From Acidimicrobiaceae bacterium (GTDB lineage: Bacteria; Actinomycetota; Acidimicrobiia; Acidimicrobiales; Palsa-688): a DNA stretch of 43,855 bases. A program made the translations under genes and the position numbers. The notes under the pieces were generated by a model. It saw nothing but the letters and a program-made list of their open reading frames with translations, ran no database searches and was not told the origin of the DNA. Below, one piece after another: positions 3,415 through 43,855 of the stretch; position 1 is the stretch's first letter, and each line of letters starts with the position of its first letter. The stretch spans positions 1 through 43,855 of the forward strand of contig JAUTXM010000392.1 in the NCBI GenBank assembly GCA_030838025.1, given 5' to 3'.

Positions 3415-3612
3415 ATGGTGTACCTTATGATTCTCCTTGTCATCGTTCTCTGGTTCGTAGTCTCGACGGTGACGGCCCTCGTCATCGGCGGGGTCATCCG
3501 CAAGGCGGGCGGCGGAGACATCGTCGCCCATGCCCCGCCGGCCGCCGGCGCGTCCTCCCCAAGAGCGGTCATCATGCGGTCCGTCGATGACCACAAGCTT
3601 GAGACCGGTTGA
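3415..3612 (+). CDS. hypothetical small single-pass membrane protein
   Basis: Internal ATG of listed ORF 3169..3612 gives MVYLMILLVIVLWFVVSTVTALVIGGVIRKAGGG..., one clear TM helix followed by a polar tail. No family recognised. Confidence 0.3.
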   Translation: MVYLMILLVIVLWFVVSTVTALVIGGVIRKAGGGDIVAHAPPAAGASSPRAVIMRSVDDHKLETG

Positions 3613-3637
3613 CCGGTTGACCGGTTGGCCGGTTTGA
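3605..3637. repeat. four tandem copies of an 8-mer CCGGTTGA (CCGGTTGA CCGGTTGA CCGGTTGG CCGGTTTGA)
   Basis: Read directly from the sequence. The array lies about 110 bp upstream of the GTG start of the Wzz/BY-kinase gene. Each unit contains a TTGACC/TTGGCC hexamer. Confidence 0.9.
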
Positions 3638-3747
3638 CCGCCCGTCCAAGCAGGTCCTTGCCGCCTGGACGCAAACGCGGTCGGGGTTATGCTGCTCGGG
3701 CGGCTCCGTGCGTTCGCCCCACCGTCGCAGAAGGAAGGGACTGAGGC

Positions 3748-6915: not shown

Positions 6916-7037
6916 CCGGGGCGAAACGTGACATCGCAGGCAGGACAGCCGGCGGGCGAGGGGTCCGAGGTGATTCACGAACTCCGGATCGGCGCCGCAG
7001 GAAATGCTCCTGAGCGGTTTCTGACTTTTCCGGCCCG

Positions 7038-9634: not shown

Positions 9635-9713
9635 GTCGCCATTGGGCTCACGGTAGTCAACCCGATCTAGCCTGCCAACGACCGCTCAAGGCCCGTCGAC
9701 TAAGATACGCGGG

Positions 9714-10988: not shown

Positions 10989-11010
10989 CCGAAGCGCCCA
11001 CGTTGGGTGC

Positions 11011-12453: not shown

Positions 12454-12558
12454 GGAGCAATGTTTACTTGCGATTGTGATCGTTCTGTTATCGCCTAACG
12501 CCTGGCCTCCGACGGCCTGACCTCCAGTCTGACCCAGCGGCTGGCCTACGCTCGGAGG

Positions 12559-13548
12559 ATGCCACGCCCCGCGGTCGTATACATCGGGGGCAACGGCCGC
12601 AGCGGAAGTACCATCCTGGCCCAGCTGGTGGGTCGGCATGCGGGATTCGCGGCGGTGGGCGAACTGCGCTACGCCCTTGAACGCGGTGTGCTCGCGAATC
12701 ACCTCTGCGGGTGTGGAACGCCGTTCCGGGAGTGCGCGTTCTGGACCGAAGTTTTCACCCGATTGCTCGGAGGATTCGACACGGCCCAGTGCGAAGAACT
12801 CTTGGCGGGAAGCCGCCGGCTCGACCGCATCCGTTATGCCGCCCTACTGGTGGCGCCACCTGGAGCTCGGCCCCCCGGTTTCCGAAAGCGTCTGGATCAG
12901 CATGCCGAGTTCTTGCTTCGGCTGTACACAACCATCGCCGAGGTAACGGGTGCCGAAGCCGTAGTCGACTCTTCGAAGGATCCTTCCTACGCGTTTCTCC
13001 TACGAAGTGTGGCCGGCCTGGACGTATCCGTCGTGCATTTGGTGCGAGACAGTCGGGCGGTCGCCTATTCATGGACTCGAGCCAAGGTCCGGCCAGAGAT
13101 CCACTGGCAGGTCGAATATATGAGACGGAGGAGTCCGCTTCGCTCAGCCCTTGTCTGGACTGGGTGCAACCTTCTCTTCGAGGCGATAAGACACCAGCAT
13201 GACCCATACTTGCGGGTCAAATACGAGGATTTTACGTCCGAGCCGGCCCGACATGTTGCCGAGATCGTCGAGTGGGCCGGTGGATCTTCCAGCCCCGGTA
13301 TGGCGGATAGCGAGACCCCCTTTCGGCATGATATCTCCGGAAATCCAATCCGGTTTGCGACCGAGATCCCAGTTGTGAAGTTGGACGAGGAATGGAAGAA
13401 GCGGATGCCCAATGGTCAGCGCCGGCTGGTGACGCTTGTCACCGCCCCCCTCCTCGTTAGGTACCGCTACTCGCTCAACACCCGCGTCGGCGCTCGGCGA
13501 GGCGGCAAGTCGCGGATCCGAGGTATTTATCGGTTCCTTTTCAAATAA
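12559..13548 (+). CDS. sulfotransferase family protein (Sulfotransfer_3-like) with Cys motif
   Basis: N-terminal loop YIGGNGRSGSTIL (5'-PSB-like), VRDSRAVAYS (3'-PB-like), and CGCGTPFRECAFW. Confidence 0.8.
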   Translation: MPRPAVVYIGGNGRSGSTILAQLVGRHAGFAAVGELRYALERGVLANHLCGCGTPFRECAFWTEVFTRLLGGFDTAQCEELLAGSRRLDRIRYAALLVAPPGARPPGFRKRLDQHAEFLLRLYTTIAEVTGAEAVVDSSKDPSYAFLLRSVAGLDVSVVHLVRDSRAVAYSWTRAKVRPEIHWQVEYMRRRSPLRSALVWTGCNLLFEAIRHQHDPYLRVKYEDFTSEPARHVAEIVEWAGGSSSPGMADSETPFRHDISGNPIRFATEIPVVKLDEEWKKRMPNGQRRLVTLVTAPLLVRYRYSLNTRVGARRGGKSRIRGIYRFLFK

Positions 13549-14411
13549 CCATGACGTACCAGCCACGGCGCAGTCAGGGTGCCGATCAGTCCTCGCTCGA
13601 ACCGGCTGAGCTCATTTTTCCAGCTCATGTCCTCGATCAGCATCGTCGTGAGCGCAGGATTCGGTCCGCGCGGCGTGTGGACGGCCGGAAGCTGGAACGG
13701 GCCTGAGGCCAACTCCACCTGCGGTAGGCCCAGCAGGCGACAGACCCCAGCCATGGTGGCACTCGGGTCTGCGACGAAGTCCTCATAACGCACACGCAGC
13801 AGGTGCTCGGGATCGAACTGCTCGGATCGGGTGTGCCGCATGACCCAACTGGCCGCCAGCATGGTGGCGTCGAGGCTCCTCCTCGCGGGTGACGACGGCG
13901 ACCGTCGCCGCAGTTGGGATGCCACAACGCCTCGAGCGTCTCGCACGACGTGCACGTACGATGCCTCGACGCCCGTTACGTGGGCCAAGAAGGCGCCGTC
14001 TGCGGGAAGCTTCGAGTTGTCGATGACCACGTCGACCCCATATGCCTCGGCCAGACCGTGGTAGGTCGCAGCCATAGCTCCGGCGTACCCGGTGAACGAG
14101 AGGTGCCCATCGTGCGGTCTTCGCATCGCCCGACTGGTACGCCACGAGCCCTCGACTGGGACGACTTCTTCCTGCCACGCCGAGACGGATGCCGGGTCGA
14201 TTCCCGCGGCCCGGACGCGACGTAGGACAACCGACCAGACGGGGCAGTCGACGAGAAGTTCACCGCAGCCGCACGTCCGGTCGGGGCCGACGCCGAATTC
14301 CCAGAGGCGGCGTACCTCCCCGGCGTACACCGCCCCTGGGACGAGGCCCAAGACGCGGCCGACGATGGTCGTCCCGCCCCGTTGGGTTCCCAGGATATAC
14401 AGCACCTTCAC
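13527..14411 (-). CDS. sulfotransferase family protein (Sulfotransfer_3-like) with Cys motif, paralog of 12559..13548
   Basis: YILGTQRGGTTIV, VRDARGVVAS and CGCGELLVDCPVW. Its 3' end overlaps the convergent paralog by 22 bp. Confidence 0.8.
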   Translation of the reverse strand: MKVLYILGTQRGGTTIVGRVLGLVPGAVYAGEVRRLWEFGVGPDRTCGCGELLVDCPVWSVVLRRVRAAGIDPASVSAWQEEVVPVEGSWRTSRAMRRPHDGHLSFTGYAGAMAATYHGLAEAYGVDVVIDNSKLPADGAFLAHVTGVEASYVHVVRDARGVVASQLRRRSPSSPARRSLDATMLAASWVMRHTRSEQFDPEHLLRVRYEDFVADPSATMAGVCRLLGLPQVELASGPFQLPAVHTPRGPNPALTTMLIEDMSWKNELSRFERGLIGTLTAPWLVRHGYLKRNR

Positions 14412-16493: not shown

Positions 16494-17408
16494 TCAGGCG
16501 TCCGCCAGCCAGGTGGGTAACCGGTCATACCCGTTGATCGTCAACTCATCCCGTAGCTGCTTGTTTGCGTCGCGATACAGGTCGTCGAGCTGAAGACGGA
16601 TTTCAGTATCGAGCAGCTCACTGCGGGCGCCGGCTGAGTTAATGCGGTAGTAGATATCCGAGACGAGTTCCTTGCTCCTCGGGTACCGCTTTAAGCGCTC
16701 TCTGGCGCGGTTGCCATATGAGTTCGCGATCTGCTGCAGCTTTGCCGACCGGTGGTTGATCGTGGGGTTGCGCTCGGAGAAATCGAACCCCCCGGCGGGT
16801 TCGGCGTCCAAGTCGAGCCAGGAAAGGAGCTCGCTGACAACCGCGGCAGGGTCGGTCGTCAGATGCTCGAAGAACACAATTTTCGATCGGGATCCGACCG
16901 CCGAGATCCATTCGGGAAGGTAGTCGATATAGAACCCGGTGGAGAGAGTCCTGAACCGGCGGCCCTCTTCTTTAAGGTCTCCACCCGTCTTTCGAAGTTC
17001 GAGGCACCGGTCCAGGAATGTCTGCGCCGACATGTCTTTGTCCAGGAGAAGCTTGCTCTTCATGTACGTGAAGTCGGACCAGAACCGGTCAACAGGATTG
17101 CGGAGGCTGACGACGTAGCGCGGCCGGCCGAGCAACGCTTCGGTGGCCTCGAACAACCGCGGGCCGCCGTACCAGTAGTTCGGGCTCGCTTCGAGCACAT
17201 ACCGTTCGTCGCGGCAGTGGCGGAAGTACCGTTCGTAGGTCGAGATCGGCTCCAGGTGGGCGTCGGGGTAGACGAGGCGCGAGAAGTACTCGGTCTCCTT
17301 CAGCGTGGATCCGCAGATCTGCGGATGCTGCGTCAAGTAGGAGAAGAGCGAGGTTGTTCCGGCCTTGGTCACTCCAATGATCAACAAATTCGGGAGTCGG
17401 ATGCTCAT
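16494..17408 (-). CDS. PAPS-dependent sulfotransferase (Sulfotransfer_1 type)
   Basis: PNLLIIGVTKAGTTSL (5'-PSB) and LRNPVDRFWSDF (3'-PB). The gene abuts the downstream GT4 start with no gap. Confidence 0.9.
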   Translation of the reverse strand: MSIRLPNLLIIGVTKAGTTSLFSYLTQHPQICGSTLKETEYFSRLVYPDAHLEPISTYERYFRHCRDERYVLEASPNYWYGGPRLFEATEALLGRPRYVVSLRNPVDRFWSDFTYMKSKLLLDKDMSAQTFLDRCLELRKTGGDLKEEGRRFRTLSTGFYIDYLPEWISAVGSRSKIVFFEHLTTDPAAVVSELLSWLDLDAEPAGGFDFSERNPTINHRSAKLQQIANSYGNRARERLKRYPRSKELVSDIYYRINSAGARSELLDTEIRLQLDDLYRDANKQLRDELTINGYDRLPTWLADA

Positions 17409-21387: not shown

Positions 21388-21458
21388 GCGAGCGTAGTTC
21401 AGCGGCAGAACATCAGCTTCCCAAGCTGAGAACGCGGGTTCGATTCCCGTCGCTCGCT
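21388..21458 (+). tRNA. tRNA-Gly (anticodon CCC)
   Basis: Folded by hand. Acceptor GCGAGCG/CGCTCGC, D stem GTTC/GAAC, anticodon stem TCAGC/GCTGA with loop TTCCCAA, T arm GCGGG-TTCGATT-CCCGT, discriminator T. CCA is not encoded. Confidence 0.9.
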
Positions 21459-30748: not shown

Positions 30749-31909
30749 GTGAACACGGGACACCCCGGTGACTCAGGCGACCCTGACCCGGTTATCGCAG
30801 CTGGGGGAGACCTCGCCGAGGCGTCCCGGACCGCTGATCGGGCCGGTCCCCAACCGGACTCCGAGGCCGGTCCCGACGCACCTGTCGAGCCGGCTGCGCC
30901 CGTCGCACCTGTCGAGCCGCCTGTCGAGCCGGCTGCGCCCGCGGCGCCCGAGCCGGACGCACCCGCGATCCCGGCGGAGCCCGCGACACCCATCGCCCCC
31001 CCGGCCGCGGCGGACCGGGCGGCTCCGTCGCCTCCCACTCCTGCGGACCCGGGAAACGGGAAGCTCTCCGGCCACGCAATCCTGGCCAAGCTGGCGTGGG
31101 CCATGCGCTCCGAACCAGGCGACGTGCGCCCCCACAACGAGGACTTCGCGGGCGTGTTCGCCCCCACCATCCCCGACGACGCCTGGGACCGGGGCCCGTT
31201 CTTCATCGTCGCCGACGGCCTCGGGGGCCACGCCGCGGGCGAGGTGGCCAGCCGCACCGCAGTCGAAACGGCGCTCGCCCACTGGACGGCCGGTACCCCC
31301 GCCGCCCCCCACCAGGCCGTGCGCGCCGCCATCCGCGCCGCCAACGTGGCCGTCTACGATGCCGCCCTGAGCAACCGCCACCACGGCATGGCGACCACGT
31401 TCACCGCCCTCACCCTGGCCGGCAACGAAGCGATCATCGGCCACGTCGGCGACAGCCGTTGCTACCTCGTCCGAGGCCCGACCACGACACAACTCACCAA
31501 CGACCATTCCCGCGTGGGTGAGATGCTGCGCGCCGGTCTCATCACCCCCGACCAGGCCGCCAATCACCCGGCCCGTTCCATGATCTCGCGCTCGGTCGGC
31601 AGTGAACCGGGGGTGTCGGTCGACATCATCCGCCAGCCCACCCAAGCGGGCGACACGTTCCTGCTCTGCAGCGACGGGCTCTGGGACGTGGTCGGCCGCC
31701 GGGACATCACCGACGTGGTCGAGGCCATTGGCACCCCGGCTGTTCCCACCGTCATCGCGGCGGCCGACACCCTGATCGAGCAGGCCTTGGCGCGAAACAC
31801 CCCTGATAACGTCACCCTCCTCGTGGTGCGGATAACCACCGACCGGCCGGTGCCCGCCGCCACGACCCGGCGTTCATTCCTCCGGCGGGGTAGGGGGATA
31901 GTCAGATGA
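30749..31909 (+). CDS. PP2C-family Ser/Thr protein phosphatase with ~110-aa Pro/Ala/Glu-rich N-terminal extension
   Basis: RSEPGDVRPHNEDF, FFIVADGLGGHAAGEVAS, GHVGDSRCYL and LLCSDGLWDVV motifs. There is no alternative ATG/GTG/TTG between 30749 and the catalytic core. Confidence 0.85.
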   Translation: MNTGHPGDSGDPDPVIAAGGDLAEASRTADRAGPQPDSEAGPDAPVEPAAPVAPVEPPVEPAAPAAPEPDAPAIPAEPATPIAPPAAADRAAPSPPTPADPGNGKLSGHAILAKLAWAMRSEPGDVRPHNEDFAGVFAPTIPDDAWDRGPFFIVADGLGGHAAGEVASRTAVETALAHWTAGTPAAPHQAVRAAIRAANVAVYDAALSNRHHGMATTFTALTLAGNEAIIGHVGDSRCYLVRGPTTTQLTNDHSRVGEMLRAGLITPDQAANHPARSMISRSVGSEPGVSVDIIRQPTQAGDTFLLCSDGLWDVVGRRDITDVVEAIGTPAVPTVIAAADTLIEQALARNTPDNVTLLVVRITTDRPVPAATTRRSFLRRGRGIVR

Positions 31910-32847
31910 GCCGCTTCTCGCCCGGCGAACGGCTGGACACCTACGAGATCACCGAACTGCTCGGGGCGGGCGCCTACAACGAGTCCTACCGCGCCACCGA
32001 CCTCCGCAACGGTCGCACGGTCGTCCTGAAGATCCCCGACCCCAACCTGTTCGCCGACCCGGCCACTTACAACCGCTACAAGCGCGAAGCCGAGGTGGCG
32101 AAGCGCCTCGACCATCCCGCCGTGCAGAGCGCGATCGATGATGGCGAGGCGCGAGCCGAGCCCTACCTCGTGCTCACCTTCGTGGACGGCGATTCCCTCA
32201 GCCACCGCCTGCATGAGCAGCGGGGGGCATTTTCCATCCCTATCGTCGTCGACTGGGGCCGGCAACTGGCCGACGGGCTGGCCTACCTCCACGGCCAAGG
32301 CGTCGTGCACCGGGACCTGAAACCGGGCAACGTCCTCATCGGCCCCGGCGACCGCCTGGTCATCGCCGACTTCGGCACCGCCCAGCTGGCCGGGGCGCGG
32401 CGGCTCACGTTCAAGCACCTCACGGGCCTGCTGGGTACCCCGGAGTACATGAGTCCCGAGCAGGTGCAGGGCGGGCGGGGCGACGCTCGCAGCGACATCT
32501 ACGCGCTAGGCGTGATGATGTACGAAATGTTGACAGGCCGGACCCCCTTCGCAGGCAACGACTGGATGGCGGTCATGGCCGGCCATCTGCAGGGCGACCC
32601 GAAGCCGATCCGCAAGGTGCGCCCCGAAACACCCGCCGCCCTCGAGGCCGTCGTCCTCCATGCCATGCGCCGTTACCCCGACAGCCGCTACCAATCGGCC
32701 GACGACATGCGCCGCGACCTCGACCGGCTCGACAGCCTGGACCCGGCCGCCTTCGACCTTTCCCCGGAGAAGCCCATGGGCGGCGCGCCGGGCGGCGGCG
32801 GCAAGGGGCTGTTCTCGAGGATGTTCAAGACGCGAGGCGGCGGGTGA
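31906..32847 (+). CDS. Hanks-type Ser/Thr protein kinase (kinase domain only, no TM)
   Basis: VVLKIPD (catalytic Lys), HRDLKPGNVLI, ADFGTA and GTPEYMSPEQ motifs. The start overlaps the PP2C stop (ATGA). Confidence 0.9.
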   Translation: MSRFSPGERLDTYEITELLGAGAYNESYRATDLRNGRTVVLKIPDPNLFADPATYNRYKREAEVAKRLDHPAVQSAIDDGEARAEPYLVLTFVDGDSLSHRLHEQRGAFSIPIVVDWGRQLADGLAYLHGQGVVHRDLKPGNVLIGPGDRLVIADFGTAQLAGARRLTFKHLTGLLGTPEYMSPEQVQGGRGDARSDIYALGVMMYEMLTGRTPFAGNDWMAVMAGHLQGDPKPIRKVRPETPAALEAVVLHAMRRYPDSRYQSADDMRRDLDRLDSLDPAAFDLSPEKPMGGAPGGGGKGLFSRMFKTRGGG

Positions 32848-33833
32848 GCCGCTACACCCCCGGCGACGTCCTCGACCACTACAAGATCGAGGAGCTTCTC
32901 GGTTCGGGGGCCTATGCCGAGTCGTACAAGGCCACCGACACCCGCGATGGCGGCACGGTCGTGCTCAAGGTTCCCGACCCCAACCTGTTCGCCGATCCGT
33001 CCGCCTTCAGCCGCTACCGCCGGGAAGCCGAGGTGGCCCGCCGGCTCGACCACCCGAGCGTGCAAGGGGCCATCGATCCGGGCGAGTCCCGCAGCGCCCA
33101 CTATCTCGTTCTCGACTACATCGACGGCGTGTCGCTGCGCAAGCGGATGCGGTCCTTCGGCGGCCTGGTGCCCATCGACAAGGTCGTCGATTGGGGACGC
33201 CAGCTGGCCCACGGCCTGGCCTACCTCCACAGCAAAGGGGTCGTGCACCGCGACCTCAAGCCGGAGAACATCCTGGTCACGCCGGACGATCGCCTCGTCA
33301 TCGGCGACTTCGGCACGGCGCAACTCACCGGCGCCCGCCGCCTCACCTGGAAACATCTCTCCGAAAGCCTCGGCACGCCCGACTACATGAGCCCCGAGCA
33401 GGTGCAAGGGGAGCGGGGCGACGCCCGCAGCGACCTCTACTCGCTCGGCGTGATGTTGTACGAGCTGCTCGCGGGGCGGGTTCCCTTCGAGGGCGACAAC
33501 TGGATGGCGGTCATGGCCGGCCACCTCCAGGGCGACCCGAAGCCCATCCACAAGCTGCGCCCCGAGGTTCCGCCCGCGCTCGAGGCGGTGGTGATGCACG
33601 CCATGCGCCGCCACCCCGAGAACCGCTACCAGTCGGCCGACGCCCTGCTGGCCGACCTCGAGCATCTCGACCAGGTCGACCCGGCGGCGTACGACCAGAC
33701 CCCCGAGAAGCCCATGGGCGGCATGGCTGCGGGCCAGTCGTCTCGCCGCCTGTGGGCCATCGCCGCCATGATCTCCGCCGCCTTCCTCGCCTTGGCGGCC
33801 GTGATCATCACGCTGTCCATCCTCCTCCGATAG
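32844..33833 (+). CDS. Hanks-type Ser/Thr protein kinase, tail-anchored paralog
   Basis: VVLKVPD, HRDLKPENILV, GDFGTA and GTPDYMSPEQ motifs. The C-terminal TM LWAIAAMISAAFLALAAVIITLSILL is followed by only one residue. GTGA overlap with the upstream kinase. Confidence 0.9.
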   Translation: MSRYTPGDVLDHYKIEELLGSGAYAESYKATDTRDGGTVVLKVPDPNLFADPSAFSRYRREAEVARRLDHPSVQGAIDPGESRSAHYLVLDYIDGVSLRKRMRSFGGLVPIDKVVDWGRQLAHGLAYLHSKGVVHRDLKPENILVTPDDRLVIGDFGTAQLTGARRLTWKHLSESLGTPDYMSPEQVQGERGDARSDLYSLGVMLYELLAGRVPFEGDNWMAVMAGHLQGDPKPIHKLRPEVPPALEAVVMHAMRRHPENRYQSADALLADLEHLDQVDPAAYDQTPEKPMGGMAAGQSSRRLWAIAAMISAAFLALAAVIITLSILLR

Positions 33834-33846
33834 TCAGGAACCGCCA

Positions 33847-35097
33847 GTGACCGAAATCGAGGGCTTGCGCTGGATCCGGCTCGTGTTCGTCGACGTGTTC
33901 GGCGCGGCTCACGCGGTCGTGTTGCCTGCCGTCCACTTCACCGATGCCTTGGAAAAAGGCGCCCCCTTCGACGGGTCGGCCCTTGCGGGGCGGGCCCGCC
34001 ATTTCGAGGAGGACATGGTTCTTCAGCCGGACCCGGCAACCCTGGTCGACCTGGGTGAGGGCCAGGGTCGTGTGGCGTGCACGGTGATCGGGCCTGACGG
34101 CCTTCCGTGGCTGGGCGACCCCCGAACGGCGCTGGTGACGAAGCTCACCGAGCTCGGTGACGTGGCCTCTACTTATAGGGCTGCTGCCGAAGTCGAGTTC
34201 TATATCTTGCGCGACGACGGGCAGCCGGTCGACCGAGGCGGCTATTTCGGCGAGCTGGAGGGTGCCGGATCGTTGGTCACCCGGGCGGCGGCGTCGCGTC
34301 TGGCTGAGTACGGCGTGGAGGTGATCAGCACCCATCTCGAGTCGGGGCCGGGGCAGTACGAGTTGGACCTGGCGTCGCTGTCGCCGCTCGCGCTGGCCGA
34401 TGGGTTGGTGCTGACCAAGCAGGTCCTGCGCGAGGAGGCGACGCGTGCCGGGCTACGGGTGACGTTCATGGCCCGGCCGTTCGCGAACGAACCCGGTTCG
34501 GGCCTGCACCTGCACCAGCACCGGGAGGGCAACGACGTGCTGTTCGATTCGCGGGGGATGTTGACATCGGTCGGTCGAGCGTTCCTGGGCGGGCAGTTGG
34601 CCCATGCCGCCGGGCTGAGCGCCCTGGCCGCCCCCAACATCAACTCCTACAAGCGGCTGCACAGCGGGCCCGAAGCACCCAGCGACATCATCTGGGGTCA
34701 CCTCAACCGTTCGGCGGTTATCCGGGTGGGCAGTTCCGGCGAACAACGACCGGCGATCGAGTTCCGCCTGGCCGACCCGGCGGCCAACCCGTACCTGCTG
34801 GTATCGGGCCTACTGGCGGCGGCGGCCCACGGCGTCGCCGCCGACGTCGACCCCGGTGGGCCCTTCGAGGAGGACATCGGTGGTTTCGACCCCGCCACGG
34901 CCAGCGCCATGCAGGTGCGGCGCCTGCCCCGCGACCTCGATGGCGCCTTGGACGCCCTCGTGGCCGACGACGTGCTGGTCGACGCCTTCGACAGCCGCCT
35001 GCTGTCGCGCCTGGTCGACGGTCGCCGGGTCGAGGCCGACGACTTCCGGGCTCAGGTCACACCCTGGGAGGTCGAGCACTACCTGGACGAGGCCTAG
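33847..35097 (+). CDS. glutamine synthetase family protein (GlnA-like gamma-glutamyl ligase)
   Basis: AAEVEFYIL, GPGQYELDL, MARPF...GSGLHLHQ, NSYKRL, NRSAVIRV and EFRLADPAANPYLL motifs of the type I GS catalytic domain. The gene is short (416 aa). It starts 13 nt after the kinase stop. Confidence 0.85.
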   Translation: MTEIEGLRWIRLVFVDVFGAAHAVVLPAVHFTDALEKGAPFDGSALAGRARHFEEDMVLQPDPATLVDLGEGQGRVACTVIGPDGLPWLGDPRTALVTKLTELGDVASTYRAAAEVEFYILRDDGQPVDRGGYFGELEGAGSLVTRAAASRLAEYGVEVISTHLESGPGQYELDLASLSPLALADGLVLTKQVLREEATRAGLRVTFMARPFANEPGSGLHLHQHREGNDVLFDSRGMLTSVGRAFLGGQLAHAAGLSALAAPNINSYKRLHSGPEAPSDIIWGHLNRSAVIRVGSSGEQRPAIEFRLADPAANPYLLVSGLLAAAAHGVAADVDPGGPFEEDIGGFDPATASAMQVRRLPRDLDGALDALVADDVLVDAFDSRLLSRLVDGRRVEADDFRAQVTPWEVEHYLDEA

Positions 35098-35218: not shown

Positions 35219-37399
35219 CTACTGGTCGGGCGCGGCGTCGGGGCTGTCGAAACCGTGGGCGTCGGTGGGAGGCGTGGGCTCAGAAGGGGCGTTCGGGGTC
35301 GTCGGCCGGTCGAACCAATCAAATCCGGCCAGGCGTGCCGGCGCCTCCGAGTCGTCGGGGGCAACGGGGCCGGCCCCGCTATCGACGCCAGTTGGGGGTT
35401 CGAGATCGGCGGGGGCGTCCGCCCCGCCATCGAATGCTTCCGGAACTGCGGGGCTTACCGGCTCCTCGGCGTTGGCGGGGGCGGCAGGTACGACCCAAGC
35501 GCCGCTGCCGGCCGGGAGTTCGGGCCCGGCAGGAGTAGCCAAGCCGTCGACCGCATCGGGGGGTTCGGGCGCCCCCGGGGCCTCGGGGGCGGCGGGGTCG
35601 GCCCAGGTGTCGGCGGAGGCCGGGGGTTCGGGGCTGGCGGCGGCGGAGTCGGGGGCGGGGGCGGCCCAGGTGTCGGCGGTGCCCGGGCGTTGGGGGCTGG
35701 CGGGGGCGGGGGAGTCAGCCCGGGTGTCGGCGGTGGCCGGGGGTTGGGGGCGGGGGGTGTCGTTCTCGGTCCGGTCGTCGGTGGCTGTCGGCTCCGCGGG
35801 ACTGGTCCGGGCGGTCGGGATGGTCGGACTCGTCGCTCCTGGCAGGCGTGCCGCCTCCGAGGAGCGCGTGGCACCCGACGAGCGGCGCACGTTGAGTGTC
35901 TGGGGCAGCGGCAGGGCGTCCCACGCCCGTCGACGCTCGGCCGCCGGGTCCAACTCGAGGGCCGGGCGGGACTGTATTGACATGATCGCTCGTCGCCCCG
36001 GCTGATAGGCGGGCCACGCGGGAAGCGCAGCCGTACCGGGGTCACCGACTCTCGCGAAGTTCAAGATCACGTCCTGGAGTAACTCCGCGACGGTGCGATC
36101 GGCGTTGGTCGAAAGCCCGGGAAACGCCCCCTCGGTCGGTCCGGTGAAGTCCAACCAGGTAAACGGCAGGTCGGCGCCATGGCAGGGTCCGAGCTGATCG
36201 AAGGGCACCTGTCCGGGCGTGTGGTCGAAGCGCATGATCCAGCTCCGGCCCCCACCGCGGTTGTGGGCCTCGGCAGTGCGGACGGCGGGAATGCCGAACA
36301 GCAGATCGGTCAGCAGGTCGGCTCGTCCTCGGTCCTGGGGAAAACCCTTCTGATAGGTCCGGATCAGTCGTTCCCAGGCCACGTCGCCGAACCACGCCCG
36401 AGCCCGCAATTCCTTGGCCTTTATATAGCCCTCAGGTGAGATGGCGAGGTACAGGTTGGCCTCTTGCTGGCACGTGCTGATGAGCAGCGGTATCTGAGAC
36501 GAAGCCCCCGAGACCAGCCCGGCCATGGGATGGCCGGGCAGCACCGTGCCGTCGACCACCGGCAGGAAGGGTTCGCCTTCGAGCTCGGCGTCGTCGGAGT
36601 CGCGCATCAACGAGCCGGCTGCCTCCCGTATCGCGTCCACGGACAGCTCCCGGAGTTCGGACACCTCTCGGTAGTCGACGCCGAGCGAGTTGAGCATGCG
36701 CACGACCACAGCCCGGGAGCGCCAACGGCTCTGGACCCGGTCGGCGGCTCCGCTTTGCATGACGGCCCGGTGGAACAGTCCGGCCGCGGCGGGCATCGCC
36801 AGCAGCGCACCCACGCAGGTCGCACCCGAGGCCTGTCCGATGACGGTCACGCGGTTGGGGTCGCCGCCGAACGCCTCGATGTTGTCGCTTACCCATTGCA
36901 GCGCCGCGACTTGGTCGAGCATGCCGACATTGACCGAGCCCTCGAGCCCCGCCCCGCCCGTCGCCGCCAGGTCCAAGAAACCCCAAGGGCCGAGGCGGTA
37001 GTTGATCGTCACAATCACGGCGTCACCGCGGTTGGCCAGCCACGCCCCGTCGAAGTTGCTCCCGCTGCCGAAGACGAATGCCCCCCCGTGCAGCCAGACC
37101 AGGACCGGGCGGGCTTTTCCCCTGGTCCGTGGTGACCAGACGTTGAGGTAGAGGCAGTCCTCGCTCTCGGGAACGACTCCCGAACCTGATGGCAGCACCA
37201 GGCCCGGGACGTCGGTCGAGATGCTCGACGGGCCGAAGTCGGTGGCGTTGCGGGGGCCGTCCCACGGTGGCGAGGGCTGGGGCGGTTGGAAGCGGCGCGG
37301 GCCCTCGGGCGCGCTGGCATAGGGCACCCCGCGCCAGACGGTGACTTTCCCCTGGCGGGACCCCTTGACCCCGAATTTGGACTGCCGTCCCGAACCCAC
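35219..37399 (-). CDS. type-B carboxylesterase fold protein (PnbA-like) with non-canonical nucleophile elbow and ~245-aa Pro/Ala/Asp-rich C-terminal tail
   Basis: WRGVPYASAP, EDCLYLNVWSP, VLVWLHGGAF, FHRAVMQSGA and GPCHGADLPF motifs. GTG 37399 is preceded by AAGAGG with a 5-nt spacer; the listed ORF start is 37477. The elbow reads GQASG instead of GESAG. Confidence 0.8.
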   Translation of the reverse strand: MGSGRQSKFGVKGSRQGKVTVWRGVPYASAPEGPRRFQPPQPSPPWDGPRNATDFGPSSISTDVPGLVLPSGSGVVPESEDCLYLNVWSPRTRGKARPVLVWLHGGAFVFGSGSNFDGAWLANRGDAVIVTINYRLGPWGFLDLAATGGAGLEGSVNVGMLDQVAALQWVSDNIEAFGGDPNRVTVIGQASGATCVGALLAMPAAAGLFHRAVMQSGAADRVQSRWRSRAVVVRMLNSLGVDYREVSELRELSVDAIREAAGSLMRDSDDAELEGEPFLPVVDGTVLPGHPMAGLVSGASSQIPLLISTCQQEANLYLAISPEGYIKAKELRARAWFGDVAWERLIRTYQKGFPQDRGRADLLTDLLFGIPAVRTAEAHNRGGGRSWIMRFDHTPGQVPFDQLGPCHGADLPFTWLDFTGPTEGAFPGLSTNADRTVAELLQDVILNFARVGDPGTAALPAWPAYQPGRRAIMSIQSRPALELDPAAERRRAWDALPLPQTLNVRRSSGATRSSEAARLPGATSPTIPTARTSPAEPTATDDRTENDTPRPQPPATADTRADSPAPASPQRPGTADTWAAPAPDSAAASPEPPASADTWADPAAPEAPGAPEPPDAVDGLATPAGPELPAGSGAWVVPAAPANAEEPVSPAVPEAFDGGADAPADLEPPTGVDSGAGPVAPDDSEAPARLAGFDWFDRPTTPNAPSEPTPPTDAHGFDSPDAAPDQ

Positions 37400-37567
37400 C
37401 GATACCTCTTGTTCCGTCACTGGTGTTGCCGCGAAACGACCGCCAGAGCAACCTACCAGGGGAGTGCCCCTCCGCATCCCCGTACCAGGTCAGCCGCCGT
37501 TTATACGTTTGGTTCTTCTCTTTGGGGATGGTTGCGCAAGGGTTGTCCGTCAAGTACCGTCCCGCCC

Positions 37568-40500
37568 ATGTCAGGACTGCTCGGAGTTCTCGCGCTCGCG
37601 GCCACCCTTAGTCGGGACCCCGGCGTTACCACAGCTTCTACTGCTGCACCGGCGGCTGCCGGCCCAAGCGGAGGTACCGGACAGGCCACGGGTACCGGCG
37701 CGTCCACCACCGGTGGCACAGGCGCGGGCGGAGCGTCGGGACCATCCGGCAACAACTCGACCACGAGCGGGTCCGCCCACAGCGGGAGCGCGGCCGCGAC
37801 CTCGACCGCGACGGGGGGCTCGACCGGAGCAACCGGGGCTGCCACCGTGAGCCCGTCTGTCACCGCCGGTAGCGGCGGGGGCGGAGCAGGCACGGCCACG
37901 CCGGTCAGCGGTACCACGGGGACCGCATCCTCCGGAACCGTCTTCTCGGGCGGCGTCGGCGGTGGCCCAGGCGGCGGTACGGGCGCTGTGGCCGTGGTCG
38001 TCAGCAGCGGGAACTCCGGCGCTGCGGTCGCCAACGCGACCGGCGGCTCGTCGGGGCCGGCCTCGGCCGCATCCGTCGGCAATGCCACCAGCGGCGCCTC
38101 CGGCGCGTCGGTCACAACCTCCTCCGCGACCGGGGGGACGTCGGGCAGCGCCGTTTCCAGCCCCGTCTCGAGCAACACCGCCACCACCGGCGACGGCGGC
38201 CACTCCGGCCCCACCGGCAGTGCGGCCCAGACATCACTCGCAGCGACGGGCAGCACCGGTACCTCAGGGAGCGCGCCCAGCGGTGGATCCGGTCAGGCGA
38301 CCGCCGCCGGTTCGGCGGGTTCGGGCTCCTCGGGCGCGGGCGGCGACTCGGGTGCGGCCACCAACGTTTCGGAGACGACCGGCACCGCCACCTCGGGCGA
38401 AGCCGACGCCACCTCTGAGGCGACCGGCGGCAACACCGGCAGTTCGGGTGCCGCGACCAACGCCCCCGCCAACACCGCCACCAGCGGTGCGGGGGGCGAC
38501 GCAGTCGCCACGCCGACCAGCGGGAACACCGGTGACGCCACCTCAGGCACCGTGTTCTCAGGCGCCGCCACCCATGGCGGAGGCAGTGGCGCGGTCATGG
38601 TCACCGTCATCTCCGGTAACTCCGGCGCCGCCACGGGGACCGCCAACGGTGGATCTTCCGGACCGGCATCGGCCACCTCGACCGGCAATGCCACCTCCGG
38701 CGCCACCGGATCCACCACGACGACGTCGTCGGCGACCGGCGGCACCTCGGGCAGCGCGGTTGCGAGCCCCGTTTCGACCAATACTGCGGGGACCGGCGAC
38801 GGCGGCGCCTCGGGCGCCACGGGCACGGCGTCGCAGACGTCGATCGCCTCGTCGGGCGATACCGGCGGCACCGGCTCAGGTCCGACCGGCGGTTCCGGCA
38901 AGGCGCGCGGCACCGGCACGGCAACCTCGGGCGACTCAGGTGCGGGCGGATTCTCCGGCGATGCCAGCAACGGCTCGACGACCACCGGCACCGCCACGAC
39001 AGGCGACGCCACCGGCTCGTCCACTGCCAGCGGCGGCGACTCGGGCAACTCGGGTGACGCCACCAACAGGCCGGTCAACACTGCCACGTCCGGCCCCGGC
39101 GGAATCGCCACGGTCATCTCGACCAGCGGCAACACCGGCGACGCCACGTCAGGAACGGTCTTCTCAGGCGCCGTCACCGGCGGAGGCGGTAGCGGGGCGG
39201 TGTTGGTCACCGTCGTTTCGGGCGACTCGGGCGCCGCCACCGGCACCGCGACCGGCGGTACCTCCGGCGCGGCCACCGCCACGTCGACCGGCGACGCGGT
39301 CTCCGGTGCCACGGGGGATTCGACGACCACCTCGTCGGCGACCGGCGGGACGTCGGGCGGGGCAGTTGCCAGCCCTGTTTCCACCAACGCCGCGGGCACC
39401 GGCAACGGCGGCGCCTCGGGCGCCACTGGCGCGGCCTCGCAGACCTCGAACGCCACGTCTGGTTCGACCGGCGGGGCTGGTCCCTCGGGCGGCTCCGGCA
39501 AGGCCACCGCACGGGGGACCTCCATCTCCGGTGACTCTGGCACCGGTGGCGACTCAGGCGCGGCCAGCAACGGCTCGACGACGACCGGAACCGCCGTGAG
39601 CGGCGACGCCAGTGGCGCTTCGACCGCGAGCGGGGGCGATACCGGTTCCTCGGGTGCCGCGACCAACGCACCGGGCAACACCGCGACCAGCGGCACCGGT
39701 GGCGACGCCACCGTCGTCACGGTCTCCGGTAACACCGGGGACGCCACCTCGGGGGCGGCCTTCTCGGGTGCGGTCACCGGCGGCGGCGGCAGTGGCGCGG
39801 TTGCGGTCAATGTGACCTCGGGCAACTCGGGTGACGCCACCGGCACCGCCAACGGCGGTTCCACCGGCGCGGCCACCGCTTCGTCGACCGGCAACGCCAT
39901 TTCGGGCGCCACCGGCAGCTCGATCACGCATTCGTCCGCAACCGGCGGAACGTCGGGCAGTGCCACGGCCAGCCCGACCTCGTCCAATACCGCGGGCACG
40001 GGCAACGGGGGCGCCTCAGGCACGACCGGCAGCGCCTCCCAGACCTCCACGGCCACGTCGGGCAACACTGATCCTCCGGTCGGCCCGACGGGCGGCTCGG
40101 GTGGCGCCCGGGCCGATGGCACGGCACTTTCGGGCTTCTCGGGTGACGGCGGCTTCTCGGGCGCGGCGACGAATGACTCGACGACGACCGGAACCGCCAC
40201 CACGGGCGAGGCCGAAGGCACCGCCGGCGCCACTGGCGGCACCACCGGTAACTCCGGCGATGCCACCAACATCCCGATCAACTCCGCCTTCTCCGGCGAC
40301 GGCGGCACCGCCTTGGTGCTCGCCACCAGTGGAGCGACCGGGGACGCCACTTCCGGCGCCGCCTTCTCGGGTGACGTCCACGGCGGCGGCGGCAGCGGTG
40401 CCGTTGCGGTCACCGTAACCTCGGGCAACTCGGGTGCTGCGACGGGCAACGCGACCGGCGGCACTTCCGGCGCCGCCACTGCCTCGTCGACCGGTGATGC

Positions 40501-43500
40501 CATCTCGGGGGCGACCGGCGACTCGGTCACCACCGCATCGGCGACCGGCGGCACCTCGGGCAACGCGGTTGCCAGTCCTTCTTCCAGCAACACCGCCGCC
40601 ACCGGCGACGGCGGGGCGTCGGGCAACACCGGGACCGCCTCCCAGACCTCCGGTGCCACCTCGGGCGACACGGGCAGCCCCACCTCGGGCGGCCCGACGG
40701 GCGGGTCCGGCGCGGCGCGGTCCAGTGGCACCGCGATCTCCGGTGACTCAGGCATCGGCGGTGACTCAGGCTCAGCCCTCAACACATCCAGCACCACCGG
40801 CACCGCGACCAGCGGTGACGCGGAGGCAACCGCCCTTTCTTCGGGCGGCACCACCGGCAACTCGGGTGCCGCCACCAACGTTCCGATCAACACTGCCGTC
40901 AGCGGCATCGGAGGCGACGCCACCGTCGTACCGACCAGCGGCGACACCGGTGCGGCCGCCTCGGGGGCCGCCTTCTCGGGCAGCGTCACCGGGAGCGGCG
41001 GCAGCGGCGCGGTTGCGGTCACCGTCACCTCAGGCGACTCGGGTGCGGCCACCGGGACGGCGAACGGCGGTTCCAGCGGAGCGGCGACCGCCAGCTCCTC
41101 GGGCGACGCCATCTCGGGTGCGACCGGCTCCGTAACCACCACCTCCTCGGCAACCGGCGGGACTTCGGGCAGCGCCACCGCCAGTCCCATTTCGGCCAAC
41201 ACCGCCAGCACGGGTGCCGGCGGGGCGTCGGGCACCACCGGCTCGGCGTCGCAGACGTCCACGGCCACCTCGGGCAACACCGATCCCCCCATCGGCCCGA
41301 CGGGCGCATCGGGTGTTGCTCGTTCGTCGGGTTTCGCGGGTTCCGGCTTCTCGGGCGACGGCGGCTTCTCAGGTGACGCCGTCAACGTCTCGACCACCCT
41401 TGGGATCGCTCATTCCGGCGCCGCCAGCGCCGGTTCCGTCTCCACCGGAGGCACCAGCGGCAACTCGGGTGACGCCCTCAACAATCCGTCCAACACCGCG
41501 GTCTCCGGCGACGGTGGCGCCGCCACCTCGCTCGCGACGAGCGGGAGTACGGGCGACGCCACCTCAGGGGCGGCGTTCTCCGGTGATGTCTCCGGTGGCG
41601 GCGGCAGCGGCGCGGTCGACGTGACCGTGACCTCAGGCACGACGGGTGACGCCACGGGCGAAGCCACCGGTGGGACCTCCGGTGCCGCCAGCGCCAGCTC
41701 GGTCGGCGACGCCATCTCCGGCGCCACCGGAGCCGTTCTCACCACTTCGTCAGCCACCGGCGGGACGTCAGGCGACGCCGTTGCCAACCCGGCTTCGACC
41801 AACGCCGCCACGACCGGTGACGGTGGTGCATCGGGCGCAACCGGAAGTGCCTCGCAGACCTCCGACGCAACCTCGGGCGACACTGGCGACCCGGCCGGTG
41901 CCGGTGCCACGGGTGGTTCGGGCCGGGCCCGGGCCGCAGGTACCTCGATCTCGGGTGATTCCGGATTCGGCGGCGACTCCGGCTCCGCCACCAATGCCTC
42001 GGACACCACGGGCCGCGCCAGCACAGGCAACGCCGGCGCCTTGGCAGTATCTCTCGGCGGCGATTCCGGCTCGTCCGGTTCGGCCACCGACGTCCCGGTC
42101 AACTCCGCCACCAGCGGCGCCGGGGGGGCTGCGGACTCTGAGTCGGCAACGGGCGACAGCGGCGATGCCACTTCGGGCGCCGCCTTCTCGGGTGCGGTCA
42201 GCGGCAGCGGTGGCAGCGGCGCCGTCAACGTCAGCGTCAACAGCGGCGGCGGCACCGCCACTTCGGGCGCCGCCTTCTCGGGTGCGGTCAGCGGCGGCGG
42301 CGGCAGTGGCGCCGTCAATGTCGGGGTCAACAGCGGCTCCGGCCCGGCCGCCTCGGGGACGGCCTTCTCGGGTGCGGTTACCGGCGGCGGCGGCAGTGGC
42401 GCGGTTGATGTCACCGTGACCGGCGGTCCGGCCACGTCCGGTACCGCCTTCTCCGGTGCGGTCAGCGGCGGCGGCGGCAGCGGAGCGGTCGATGTCACGG
42501 TCGCCAACGGCAGCGGTGGCGGCTCAGGCTCGGCCTCCGATACCGCGAACGGCGGCTCCTCCGGGGCGGCGACCGCGTCCTCGGTCGGCGATGCCATCTC
42601 GGGTACCACCGGCGATGTCACCACGACCAGTTCGGCCACCGGCGGCACCTCAGGTGACGCCACGTCCGATCCCACCTCGTCCAACGACGCCAGCTCAGGC
42701 AATGGCGGCGACTCCGGCTCGACCGGCACTGCCTCTCAGACTTCGACCGCTACCAGTGGCACCACTGACCCGCCGGGCGGTACCACCGGCGGTTCGGGCG
42801 CCGCCTCGGCGGACGGCTTCGCCGGGTCTGGCTTCTCGGGTGACGGCGGTTTCTCCGGCGACGCCACCAACGTCTCCCGCACCCGCGGTCGGGCAAAGAC
42901 CGGCGATGCCTTCGGCGTGGCCGTCTCCACCGGCGGCGTCAGCGGTGACTCTGGACCGGCCACCAACGTCCCGATCAACATCGCTGCCAGCGGCGCCGGC
43001 GGCGCCGGCGTGAGCGGCACCGGCGGCTCGTCGGGCGCAGCCACGGCGTCCTCCATCGGCGACGCCATCAGCGGTGCCACTGGATCGTCGATGACCACCG
43101 CTTCGGCAACCGGCGGGACTTCGGGTAACGCAACCTCCAGCCCGACCTCCTCCAACGCCGCGTCCACGGGCGCCGGCGGGGACTCGGGCAACACCGGGAC
43201 CGCATCCCAGACGTCCGACGCCGCCTCTGGTGATACCGGTGGCCCGACCACGACGGGTGCTACCGGCGGGTCAGGTACCGCACGGGCCACCGGTACGGCC
43301 ATCTCGGGCGACTCAGGCATCGGGGGCGATTCCGGCGACGCCAGCAACACCTCCCTCACTCGTGGCCGGGCGGTCAGCGGCGACGCGGGCGCAGCTGCGC
43401 TGGCCTTCGGTGGCGACACCGGCGCGTCGGGTGCCGCCAGTGACACTCCGATCAACATCGCGACCAGCGGCGATGGCGGTGCGGGCGGCGGCGGCAACGG

Positions 43501-43855
43501 CGGCTCGACGGGCGCTGCCGTTGCGAGCTCGGTGGGCGACGCCATCTCGGGCGCCACCGGCGACTCGGTCACGCACGCTTCTGCGACCGGCGGGACCAGC
43601 GGCTGGACCCTCGCCAGCCCGACCTCGTCCAACATCGCCTCGACCGGCGATGGCGGCGCCTCCGGAACCACCGGAAGTGCCGCTCAGACATCGCTGGCCT
43701 CGTCGGGTTCCACGGCCGCGGCCGGCCCCGGTGTGACCGGAGGCTCGGGCAGGGCCAGGGCACGCGGGTTTGCGGGATCGGGCTTCTCGGGAGACGGCGG
43801 CTTCTCGGGCGACGCCACCAACACCTCCCTCACTCGTGGCCGGGCGGTCAGCGGC
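37568..43855 (+). CDS. giant Gly/Ser/Thr/Ala-rich tandem-repeat protein, 3'-partial (>2,096 aa), absent from the supplied ORF track
   Basis: My own translation of the + frame with codon starts equal to 2 mod 3. ATG 37568 (alternative TTG 37532, 3 nt after GGGGA) gives MSGLLGVLALAATLSRDPGVTTASTAAPAAAGPSGG.... The frame stays open for all 2,096 codons to base 43855. The minus-strand ORFs listed here are a single frame broken by TGA at 38293, 41410 and 42736. Each of these stops is created by a T-ending codon in the + frame (ggT Cag, gcT Cat, tcT Cag). Confidence 0.72.
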   Translation, partial: MSGLLGVLALAATLSRDPGVTTASTAAPAAAGPSGGTGQATGTGASTTGGTGAGGASGPSGNNSTTSGSAHSGSAAATSTATGGSTGATGAATVSPSVTAGSGGGGAGTATPVSGTTGTASSGTVFSGGVGGGPGGGTGAVAVVVSSGNSGAAVANATGGSSGPASAASVGNATSGASGASVTTSSATGGTSGSAVSSPVSSNTATTGDGGHSGPTGSAAQTSLAATGSTGTSGSAPSGGSGQATAAGSAGSGSSGAGGDSGAATNVSETTGTATSGEADATSEATGGNTGSSGAATNAPANTATSGAGGDAVATPTSGNTGDATSGTVFSGAATHGGGSGAVMVTVISGNSGAATGTANGGSSGPASATSTGNATSGATGSTTTTSSATGGTSGSAVASPVSTNTAGTGDGGASGATGTASQTSIASSGDTGGTGSGPTGGSGKARGTGTATSGDSGAGGFSGDASNGSTTTGTATTGDATGSSTASGGDSGNSGDATNRPVNTATSGPGGIATVISTSGNTGDATSGTVFSGAVTGGGGSGAVLVTVVSGDSGAATGTATGGTSGAATATSTGDAVSGATGDSTTTSSATGGTSGGAVASPVSTNAAGTGNGGASGATGAASQTSNATSGSTGGAGPSGGSGKATARGTSISGDSGTGGDSGAASNGSTTTGTAVSGDASGASTASGGDTGSSGAATNAPGNTATSGTGGDATVVTVSGNTGDATSGAAFSGAVTGGGGSGAVAVNVTSGNSGDATGTANGGSTGAATASSTGNAISGATGSSITHSSATGGTSGSATASPTSSNTAGTGNGGASGTTGSASQTSTATSGNTDPPVGPTGGSGGARADGTALSGFSGDGGFSGAATNDSTTTGTATTGEAEGTAGATGGTTGNSGDATNIPINSAFSGDGGTALVLATSGATGDATSGAAFSGDVHGGGGSGAVAVTVTSGNSGAATGNATGGTSGAATASSTGDAISGATGDSVTTASATGGTSGNAVASPSSSNTAATGDGGASGNTGTASQTSGATSGDTGSPTSGGPTGGSGAARSSGTAISGDSGIGGDSGSALNTSSTTGTATSGDAEATALSSGGTTGNSGAATNVPINTAVSGIGGDATVVPTSGDTGAAASGAAFSGSVTGSGGSGAVAVTVTSGDSGAATGTANGGSSGAATASSSGDAISGATGSVTTTSSATGGTSGSATASPISANTASTGAGGASGTTGSASQTSTATSGNTDPPIGPTGASGVARSSGFAGSGFSGDGGFSGDAVNVSTTLGIAHSGAASAGSVSTGGTSGNSGDALNNPSNTAVSGDGGAATSLATSGSTGDATSGAAFSGDVSGGGGSGAVDVTVTSGTTGDATGEATGGTSGAASASSVGDAISGATGAVLTTSSATGGTSGDAVANPASTNAATTGDGGASGATGSASQTSDATSGDTGDPAGAGATGGSGRARAAGTSISGDSGFGGDSGSATNASDTTGRASTGNAGALAVSLGGDSGSSGSATDVPVNSATSGAGGAADSESATGDSGDATSGAAFSGAVSGSGGSGAVNVSVNSGGGTATSGAAFSGAVSGGGGSGAVNVGVNSGSGPAASGTAFSGAVTGGGGSGAVDVTVTGGPATSGTAFSGAVSGGGGSGAVDVTVANGSGGGSGSASDTANGGSSGAATASSVGDAISGTTGDVTTTSSATGGTSGDATSDPTSSNDASSGNGGDSGSTGTASQTSTATSGTTDPPGGTTGGSGAASADGFAGSGFSGDGGFSGDATNVSRTRGRAKTGDAFGVAVSTGGVSGDSGPATNVPINIAASGAGGAGVSGTGGSSGAATASSIGDAISGATGSSMTTASATGGTSGNATSSPTSSNAASTGAGGDSGNTGTASQTSDAASGDTGGPTTTGATGGSGTARATGTAISGDSGIGGDSGDASNTSLTRGRAVSGDAGAAALAFGGDTGASGAASDTPINIATSGDGGAGGGGNGGSTGAAVASSVGDAISGATGDSVTHASATGGTSGWTLASPTSSNIASTGDGGASGTTGSAAQTSLASSGSTAAAGPGVTGGSGRARARGFAGSGFSGDGGFSGDATNTSLTRGRAVSG
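37919..43855 (+). repeat. coding tandem repeat: 8 units of 600-612 bp, then shorter ~474-480 bp units, running off the window
   Basis: The anchor motif G-x-A-x-SG-x-x-FSG begins at 37919, 38531, 39137, 39737, 40340, 40949, 41552 and 42161. An exact 36-nt repeat aacacctccctcactcgtggccgggcggtcagcggc occurs at 43346..43381 and 43820..43855. Confidence 0.9.

Follow-up and report, generated by a model that had tools for sequence, protein, structure and literature searches.

A giant Gly/Ser/Thr/Ala-rich repeat gene of an uncultured soil actinobacterium and its gene-like antisense shadow

The window analysed here, the whole 43,855-nucleotide stretch of contig JAUTXM010000392.1 from an Acidimicrobiaceae bacterium, ends in a very long open frame on the forward strand. 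Translation from the ATG at 37568 gives 2,096 codons with zero stops, reaching the last base of the window (43855), as a preliminary description of this DNA had reported. That description had also guessed correctly why the frame is missing from the list of open reading frames (ORFs), which leaves out ORFs running off the source. It is highly probable, in our view, that this frame is a real gene, represented in the window by the 5' 54% of its ~11.6 kb, and that it encodes a surface-displayed protein of ~3,860-3,870 residues in an uncultured soil bacterium of the Actinomycetota. The analysis makes use of six related loci: L001 and L002, two loci from Actinomycetota metagenome-assembled genomes (MAGs), obtained by scanning reference genomes with the repeat alignment, and L003, L004, L005 and L006, four contigs obtained from a metagenome scan. 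The repeat has so far been found in the window and these six loci only. The forward-strand features of the locus are the following.

37493..37567, forward: conserved non-coding leader or promoter region, better conserved than the coding sequence in the window, L001, L002 and L004
37568..43855, forward: partial coding sequence of a giant repeat surface protein, 2,096 codons, 3' end past the window (no stop; collinear with L001)
37568..37615, forward: hydrophobic N-terminal leader MSGLLGVLALAATLSR, putative export signal, conserved in four orthologs and two paralogs
37616..37924, forward: N-terminal G/S/T/A-rich region, residues 17-119, from the translation, with no Pfam or NCBIfam match
37925-38530, 38531-39136, 39137-39736, 39737-40339, 40340-40948 and 40949-41551, forward: repeat units 1-6, 200-203 residues each, from motif spacing and unit alignment
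41552..42433, forward: repeat unit 7, 294 residues, a full unit plus three extra 28-30-residue modules (TSGxAFSGAVSGGGGSGAVxVxV)
42434-42904, 42905-43381 and 43382-43855, forward: repeat units 8-10, short type, 157-159 residues, from motif spacing and alignment

From the position-specific base composition, ~14 stops would be expected in the forward frame, against none observed. The product is dominated by four small residues, Gly (25.2%), Ser (18.4%), Ala (17.6%) and Thr (16.6%), which together account for 78% of its 2,096 positions. Residue counts bore out the composition described earlier: Cys and Tyr are absent, Trp occurs once, 21 of the 27 Phe lie within FSG motifs, and Lys (3) and Arg (21) are scarce. 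His or Gln residues number 19, the hydrophobic residues Val, Ile, Leu and Phe make up ~9% of the protein, and Ser or Thr 35%. The codons that specify such a protein (GGN, GCN, ACN and TCN) raise the G+C content of the second codon position (GC2) to 0.81, giving an unusual profile of 0.58/0.81/0.83 over the three positions, in which GC2 exceeds GC1. This amino-acid composition also explains the raised G+C of the giant gene, 73-75% across 38001-43000, compared with ~62-69% for genes in the first 30 kb and 68-75% for the adjacent genes at 30-37 kb.

L001 is syntenic with the window at 75% DNA identity and holds a complete forward frame, which opens with the same Met and reaches its stop after 3,858 codons (3,943 codons between stops). 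The estimate that the window contains ~54% of the gene follows from its collinearity with this complete copy. L002 is 90% identical in DNA over window positions 36269-43855. In the metagenome contigs the forward frame is intact to the contig ends, with 1,286 open codons in L003, 1,197 in L004, 882 in L005 and 919 in L006. The last of these (L006 3-2759) is divergent, its unit measuring ~180 residues (TLTLTSGNSG...SRSGDSGDAxSxP).

The C-terminus of the L001 protein consists of a four-Cys NxGxGNSG domain of the Pentapeptide_2 family and a Pro/Gly/Thr linker (PGTPG), followed by '...SLPLTGSNTAMPLAVALGLLLSGGAAVGLTGRRREEADSQ*'. This end carries a sorting signal made up of LPLTG, a hydrophobic stretch and an RRREE tail (LPLTG...RRREEADSQ), and three models score above their cut-offs there.

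L001 C-terminus: Pentapeptide_2 (PF01469), 45.6 bits, cut-off 26.4
L001 C-terminus: Gram_pos_anchor (PF00746), 21.3 bits, cut-off 20
L001 C-terminus: TIGR01167, 19.7 bits, cut-off 15.9

L002 and L003 end alike, with the same LPLTG signal. The window gene is conserved and under purifying selection, and its orthologs bear a sortase sorting signal. The earlier proposal of a secreted or surface-anchored fibrous protein gains support from this signal, which exceeds the curated cut-offs of both PF00746 and TIGR01167. By analogy, ~8 more units would follow beyond the window end, and then the Pentapeptide_2 domain, the Pro/Gly/Thr linker and LPLTG. Directly downstream of the giant gene, in L001 (18955-19602) and L002 (13020-13742), lies a small paralog. 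Its leader is of the same type (MSALVASLALATALSR) and is followed by a Pentapeptide_2 domain with four Cys, then a Pro/Thr linker and LPLTG, and it has no repeats; it is presumably also found just past the end of the window. Since leader, Pentapeptide_2 domain and LPLTG are shared, the giant protein looks like this small paralog into which a very large array has been placed behind the leader.

Opposite the giant gene, the ORF list contains three long minus-strand ORFs, which we regard as shadows.

38293-41397, 41410-42729 and 42736-43671, reverse: shadow ORFs of a single P/A/V/E-rich antisense frame, non-gene (TGA breaks, codon usage, substitution rates, no Pfam or database relative)

All three belong to one frame, whose third codon positions coincide with those of the forward frame. 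The preliminary description had stated that this frame is broken by three TGA codons created by T-ending forward codons. The breaks and their origin stood, each TGA arising from a T-ending forward codon followed by CAG or CAT; the count did not, as four are present in the window (38293, 41410, 42736 and 43684). Openness alone cannot separate the two frames, because few stops are expected in either one given the other. Synonymous-codon shuffles that preserve the forward protein yield 1.9 expected minus-frame stops in the window, where 4 are seen, and 2.7 in L001, where 3 are seen; given the minus-frame protein, in turn, only 0.05 stops are expected in the forward frame. The openness of the minus frame is a consequence of a forward protein that has no Tyr and few His or Gln.

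Could the minus-strand ORFs be the real genes, and the forward frame their open shadow? The G+C of the minus frame by codon position, 0.82/0.55/0.85, is the profile typical of high-GC genes (GC1 > GC2 < GC3), and the shadow looks the more gene-like of the two on a frame plot because the profile of the real frame is unusual. The minus frame is also nearly open, with four stops in 2,096 codons in the window, 2,736 open codons in L001 and 1,286 in L003, and an open forward frame is what chance would give for its protein. However, the minus frame is interrupted in both the window and L001, with only one stop position common to the two. Its synonymous codon-usage score per codon (0.192) falls below those of all 15 window genes taken as reference (range 0.215-0.47), whereas that of the forward frame (0.306) lies inside their range. 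The ratio of non-synonymous to synonymous substitution rates (dN/dS) is likewise higher for the minus frame, at 0.30 against 0.23 for the forward frame in the comparison with L001, and 0.23 against 0.16 in that with L002. At 21 conserved Ser positions the ortholog comparison reveals switches between TCN and AGY codons, which would mean Asp/Glu-to-Leu changes if the minus frame were read. The window and L001 differ by indels of 3, 9 and 12 nt only, all of them in-frame. The minus frame has no Pfam match, and word-indexed protein searches with the forward product, the window minus ORF and the L003 minus frame returned nothing but one spurious match.

A comparison of codons between repeat copies within the window has little power: differences fall mostly at the shared wobble positions, with only 5 Ser codon-family switches. 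This test of synonymous against non-synonymous change is weak because the frames share their third positions, and the orthologs were used in its place. For the same reason the quantitative measures favour the forward frame only modestly. The decisive evidence is provided by the ortholog termini, as the conserved start, the leader, the Pfam domain and the LPXTG signal exist in the forward frame only; orthologs were needed to settle the strand. The forward frame is kept open in L001 and L003-L006, consistent with the earlier claim that it is the selected one. A minus-strand gene is thus very improbable and already close to refuted.

A related possibility is that both strands are translated, with a long antisense overlapping gene inside the giant gene. 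At least one report (PMC8850804) describes long antisense overlapping genes in Pseudomonas, and the antisense frame here is unusually long and open in several orthologs. On the other hand, that openness is fully accounted for by the lack of Tyr and the few His or Gln in the forward protein, the minus-frame stops are at least as frequent as chance predicts from the forward sequence, in the window and in L001 alike, and no measure independently favours the minus frame. We give this second possibility as little credence as the first.

With the forward frame taken as the gene, its start can be placed with the help of the upstream region. The ~75 nt before the ATG have counterparts in L001 (7150-7225), L002 (1225-1299) and L004 (2255-2330). 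L001 and L004 carry a 1-nt indel 8 nt before the ATG, and L002 has an in-frame stop 7 codons upstream of it; the region is therefore untranslated in the forward frame, and the start is the ATG at 37568. An upstream TTG start (MRKGCPSS...) was rejected on account of the same L002 stop and the frame-breaking indel in L001 and L004. No sigma-70 consensus match was seen in 37493..37567, and no Shine-Dalgarno sequence adjoins the ATG within these ~75 nt. An 8-bp stem is possible upstream of the ATG (GGGATGGT / ACCGTCCC), with no covariation. The conserved ~75 nt may be a regulatory leader.

The window protein begins with MSGLLGVLALAATLSRDPG... Its hydrophobic leader does not vary among the window, L001 and L002; that of L004 (MSGLLGAFALVVSLNK) is similar, as are those of the small LPXTG paralogs encoded by L001 and L002. 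We read the leader as a putative signal peptide. Within the N-terminal 119 residues, neither Pfam nor NCBIfam recognised a globular or adhesive domain.

The array that follows this 119-residue region comprises 10 tandem units in the window, seven of a long type (~201 residues) and three of a short type (~158 residues) that lack the last ~45 residues of the long unit. The conserved ASQTS motif noticed earlier recurs each 200-203 residues. The modules that expand unit 7 were picked up by Tandem Repeats Finder as a period of 90 nt with 3.8 copies (42167-42497), and L001 is expanded in the same way at the matching point of its array. The run of short units is likewise found at the same position in L001, with spacings of 157, 159, 158 and 159 residues. 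Copies within the window are 55-78% identical, with 64 invariant columns in the unit alignment. The 18 units of L001 follow the same succession of types, and the window units are 74-84% identical to their positional counterparts there, compared with mostly 55-73% to other units. As each window unit is closest to its positional L001 counterpart, the array is old and has not been homogenised.

The repeat has no family assignment, in line with the preliminary description, which could place the protein in no family. The 2,096-residue product matched no Pfam or NCBIfam family at E <= 1, and a profile search of the PDB gave one chance match only, with no relative of solved structure. Against 1.84 billion representative proteins, a profile of the unit gave five weak matches (best 1e-7); for a database of that size, its E-values are 0 to 1e-166 for the orthologs and 4e-38 for the divergent L006. 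Because the profile finds the orthologs so strongly, the near-absence of the unit from the database reflects real rarity, or genomes missing from the collection, rather than an artefact of the HMMER composition filter. The five weak matches (P0001-P0005) include secreted proteins, some of them Cys-rich, with SGDTGDA / GGDGGDSGDA / SGDSGDAxxNP motifs and no Pfam family. With L006 they point to the possibility of a broader superfamily of small-residue repeats, so far undescribed.

Conservation within the unit was assessed on 30 full units from five loci, aligned over 201 columns. In 91 of these columns conservation reaches 90% or more, and they include single F, Q, N and P positions. The autocorrelation of column conservation is -0.26 at lag 1 and +0.22 at lag 2 (shuffle standard deviation 0.07), a period of 2 as expected for beta strands. 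The strongest Fourier peak for Gly and GG lies at 25.2 residues, one eighth of the unit, and corresponds to eight 'GG-x-SG-x-A' sub-repeats of ~25 residues each. An hhalign comparison of the unit with itself, made to look for internal duplication, showed no more than a weak signal for half-units (E = 0.0016, probability 16%). Two AlphaFold models, of a single unit (10 alignment rows) and of two units (6 rows), are both all-beta with 12 strands per unit, at low confidence: their predicted local distance difference test (pLDDT) scores are 46 and 41, respectively. Foldseek found no match below E = 0.9 in the PDB, and its top non-significant matches are mostly beta-helices (SufB/SufD, FHA and HpmA TPS domains, LpxD, GlmU).

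The conservation, the period of 2 and the 25-residue Gly-Gly spacing indicate that the unit would be a folded beta-rich domain and not a drifting low-complexity linker. We infer that a beta-solenoid with a small-residue core (Ala/Ser/Thr/Gly/Val) is its most likely fold. The fuller picture is put forward only tentatively, as a possible one with the odds somewhat against it: an undescribed beta-solenoid-like domain, built almost entirely of Gly, Ser, Thr and Ala in eight ~25-residue sub-repeats, 18 copies of which would form a ~70 nm fibre displaying a regular lattice of hydroxyls. If this were true, the hydroxyl-lattice surface could directly bind ordered water or ice, minerals or polysaccharide, and the repeat would represent a family close to invisible in protein databases. 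The gene-like antisense GC-frame profile is one possible contributor to that invisibility.

The main rival on mechanism leaves gene and anchoring unchanged and takes the repeat region to be a flexible, heavily O-glycosylated, mucin-like brush, with a role akin to that of the serine-rich regions of Gram-positive glycoprotein adhesins. The high Ser and Thr content, the 78% of small residues, the scarcity of hydrophobics and the low confidence of both AlphaFold models would all suit such a brush, and a large polysaccharide, glycosyltransferase and sulfotransferase cluster is encoded in the same window. That cluster, however, is ~16 kb away with unrelated genes between, and next to the giant gene itself neither accessory Sec genes nor glycosyltransferase genes occur in the window, L001 or L002. 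Length and sequence usually wander in disordered glycosylated linkers, whereas this unit has a fixed length of 200-203 residues, the strongly conserved columns and period of 2 described above, and a dN/dS of 0.16-0.23 between orthologs. A glycosylated brush is, on balance, unlikely.

In comparison with known systems, the protein shares the plan of LPXTG surface proteins and fibrillar adhesins and differs from the described classes in several respects. Like LPXTG sortase-dependent proteins (PF00746 / TIGR01167), it combines a hydrophobic leader and tandem repeats with, in the orthologs, a Pro-rich wall-spanning linker, LPLTG, a hydrophobic stretch and a basic tail. Unlike them, its repeat unit belongs to no described stalk-domain family, its leader has no basic n-region, and its anchor falls beyond the window. 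A further comparison is with fibrillar adhesins and 'periscope' proteins (PMC9210967). Long tandem stalk repeats (10 in the window, 18 in L001) and, in the orthologs, a surface anchor are shared with fibrillar adhesins, although Pfam and NCBIfam find no adhesive domain at the N-terminal tip of the window protein. In contrast to periscope proteins, the window copies are 55-78% identical rather than near-identical, and the collinearity with L001 describes an old and stable array rather than a length-variable one.

In the serine-rich repeat proteins (SRRPs), short and degenerate repeats rich in Ser flank a binding region. The window unit is instead a conserved 200-residue domain, and no SecA2/SecY2 or glycosyltransferase genes are adjacent. 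Both are Ser/Thr-rich and, going by the orthologs of the window protein, LPXTG-anchored, so that the window protein is possibly O-glycosylated as well; for SRRPs, at least one account describes O-glycosylation on Ser or Thr and export by the accessory Sec system (PMC6973325).

The mycobacterial PPE-MPTR and PE_PGRS proteins are also actinobacterial, Gly-rich and surface-associated, and the C-terminal domain of the orthologs is a true match to Pentapeptide_2 (NxGxGNxG; PF01469), a repeat that Pfam describes from PPE-MPTR. On the other hand, the 2,096-residue product has no PE or PPE N-terminal domain in Pfam at E <= 1, and the L001 N-terminus is homologous to that of the window. Moreover, the 200-residue unit is neither a PGRS nor an MPTR repeat, and no NxGxGNxG occurs in the part seen in the window. 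PE/PPE proteins rely on type VII secretion and not on sortase anchoring. A different kind of likeness, in how the protein might work, links it to curli CsgA, ice-nucleation proteins and chlamydial Pmp, through a G/S/T/A/N-rich composition, a short sub-repeat of ~25 residues and alternating conservation. Nevertheless, no Pfam-A or NCBIfam model of ice-nucleation, Pmp or other described Gly-rich repeats matched at E <= 1, and the PDB profile search gave nothing meaningful. From beta-solenoid fibres with small or polar cores the protein also differs in its anchoring mechanism, and the fold of the window unit is not established by the models.

Mechanistically, the protein would be exported via Sec through its hydrophobic leader, after which a sortase would cut LPLT|G and join the C-terminus covalently to peptidoglycan. 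The Pentapeptide_2 domain would then lie close to the wall, with the repeat rod pointing outward and the N-terminus at its tip. Simple arithmetic on the assumed fold (18 units x eight coils x 4.8 Å per coil) would give a fibre of ~70 nm. As no binding domain is recognisable at the tip, function most likely resides in the fibre surface. The likeliest role would accordingly be that of a long surface fibre or coat for spacing, adhesion or protection via the repeat surface, and not that of a stalk with a separate adhesin head.

Several points weigh against this reading. The 3' end, LPXTG signal and Pentapeptide_2 domain of the window gene would lie past the window end, as extrapolated from orthologs 75-90% identical in DNA. 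No sortase was seen, in that no TLxTC-type motif occurs in the ORFs of the window or of the fetched L001-L006 loci, and the leader is missing the basic n-region typical of a Sec signal. At pLDDT 46 and 41, the models do not show a solenoid fold, and ~9% Val, Ile, Leu and Phe with 35% Ser or Thr would also fit a flexible glycosylated region. Finally, the giant gene of L002, the closest relative (1300-12905), has 9 frame-breaking indels of 1-2 nt in its first 6.3 kb and changes frame many times beyond.

In view of this last observation, the locus might be no functional gene but a pseudogene in decay, or a repeat region garbled in assembly. The esterase gene that flanks the giant gene in L002 aligns to the window without gaps at 96.4% identity, compared with 89% for the giant gene, which is evolving faster. 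The L002 copy may be either decaying in its own lineage or misassembled. Elsewhere, however, the frame is intact, over 6.3 kb in the window, 11.6 kb in L001 and to the contig ends in L003-L006, and dN/dS is well under 1. The units are, in addition, positional orthologs between genomes, which argues against an array collapsed or shuffled in assembly. An explanation of the whole locus by decay or misassembly is therefore improbable, and we retain that of a functional gene for a surface protein.

What is new here is a building block for bacterial surface fibres, a highly conserved repeat that is 78% Gly/Ser/Thr/Ala and has no family assignment. The overall design, with leader, tandem repeats and LPXTG, is the classic Gram-positive plan and represents no new kind of biology. 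If the unit were a solenoid with a small-residue core, it would make a useful structural case beside curli and ice-binding proteins. The locus also shows neatly how annotation can go astray: the real frame has GC2 > GC1, its antisense shadow looks gene-like and both frames are nearly stop-free.

The upstream neighbours of the giant gene encode a carboxylesterase, a glutamine synthetase-like protein, two Ser/Thr kinases and a PP2C phosphatase. The carboxylesterase gene (35219-37477, reverse strand) is divergent from the giant gene, and its 752-residue product has a Pfam domain over residues 40-514 followed by a C-terminal extension of ~240 residues with no Pfam domain. The other four genes are co-directional and overlapping on the forward strand (30749-35097), with PP2C phosphatase, the two kinases (without extra domains) and the glutamine synthetase-like gene syntenic in L001. 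Downstream of the giant gene in the orthologs, a SEC-C-motif protein, checked against Pfam, is found in addition to the small LPXTG paralog. By eye, further translations look like a phosphoglycerate mutase-like ORF and dnaK-grpE-dnaJ-hspR. A search of a plasmid collection gave only a 37-nt match in a kinase.

The first part of the window (480-21303) is occupied by a large glycan or exopolysaccharide biosynthesis cluster. A link between the giant gene and this cluster with its sulfotransferases was considered and set aside, given the ~16 kb and the unrelated genes that separate them. A single tRNA gene (21388-21458, forward) lies between the cluster and a methyltransferase gene. The cluster encodes a Bac_transf sugar transferase, an epimerase, a Wzx-like flippase, a Wzy_C polymerase, two GT4 glycosyltransferases and three pectate-lyase-like proteins, one of them with fn3 domains. 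A protein with a P-loop (AAA_31/ParA-type) ATPase domain may serve as chain-length regulator. Three sulfotransferases are encoded in the cluster (480-1169, 13527-14411 and 16494-17408); among Actinomycetota, a surface polysaccharide bearing sulfate would be out of the ordinary.

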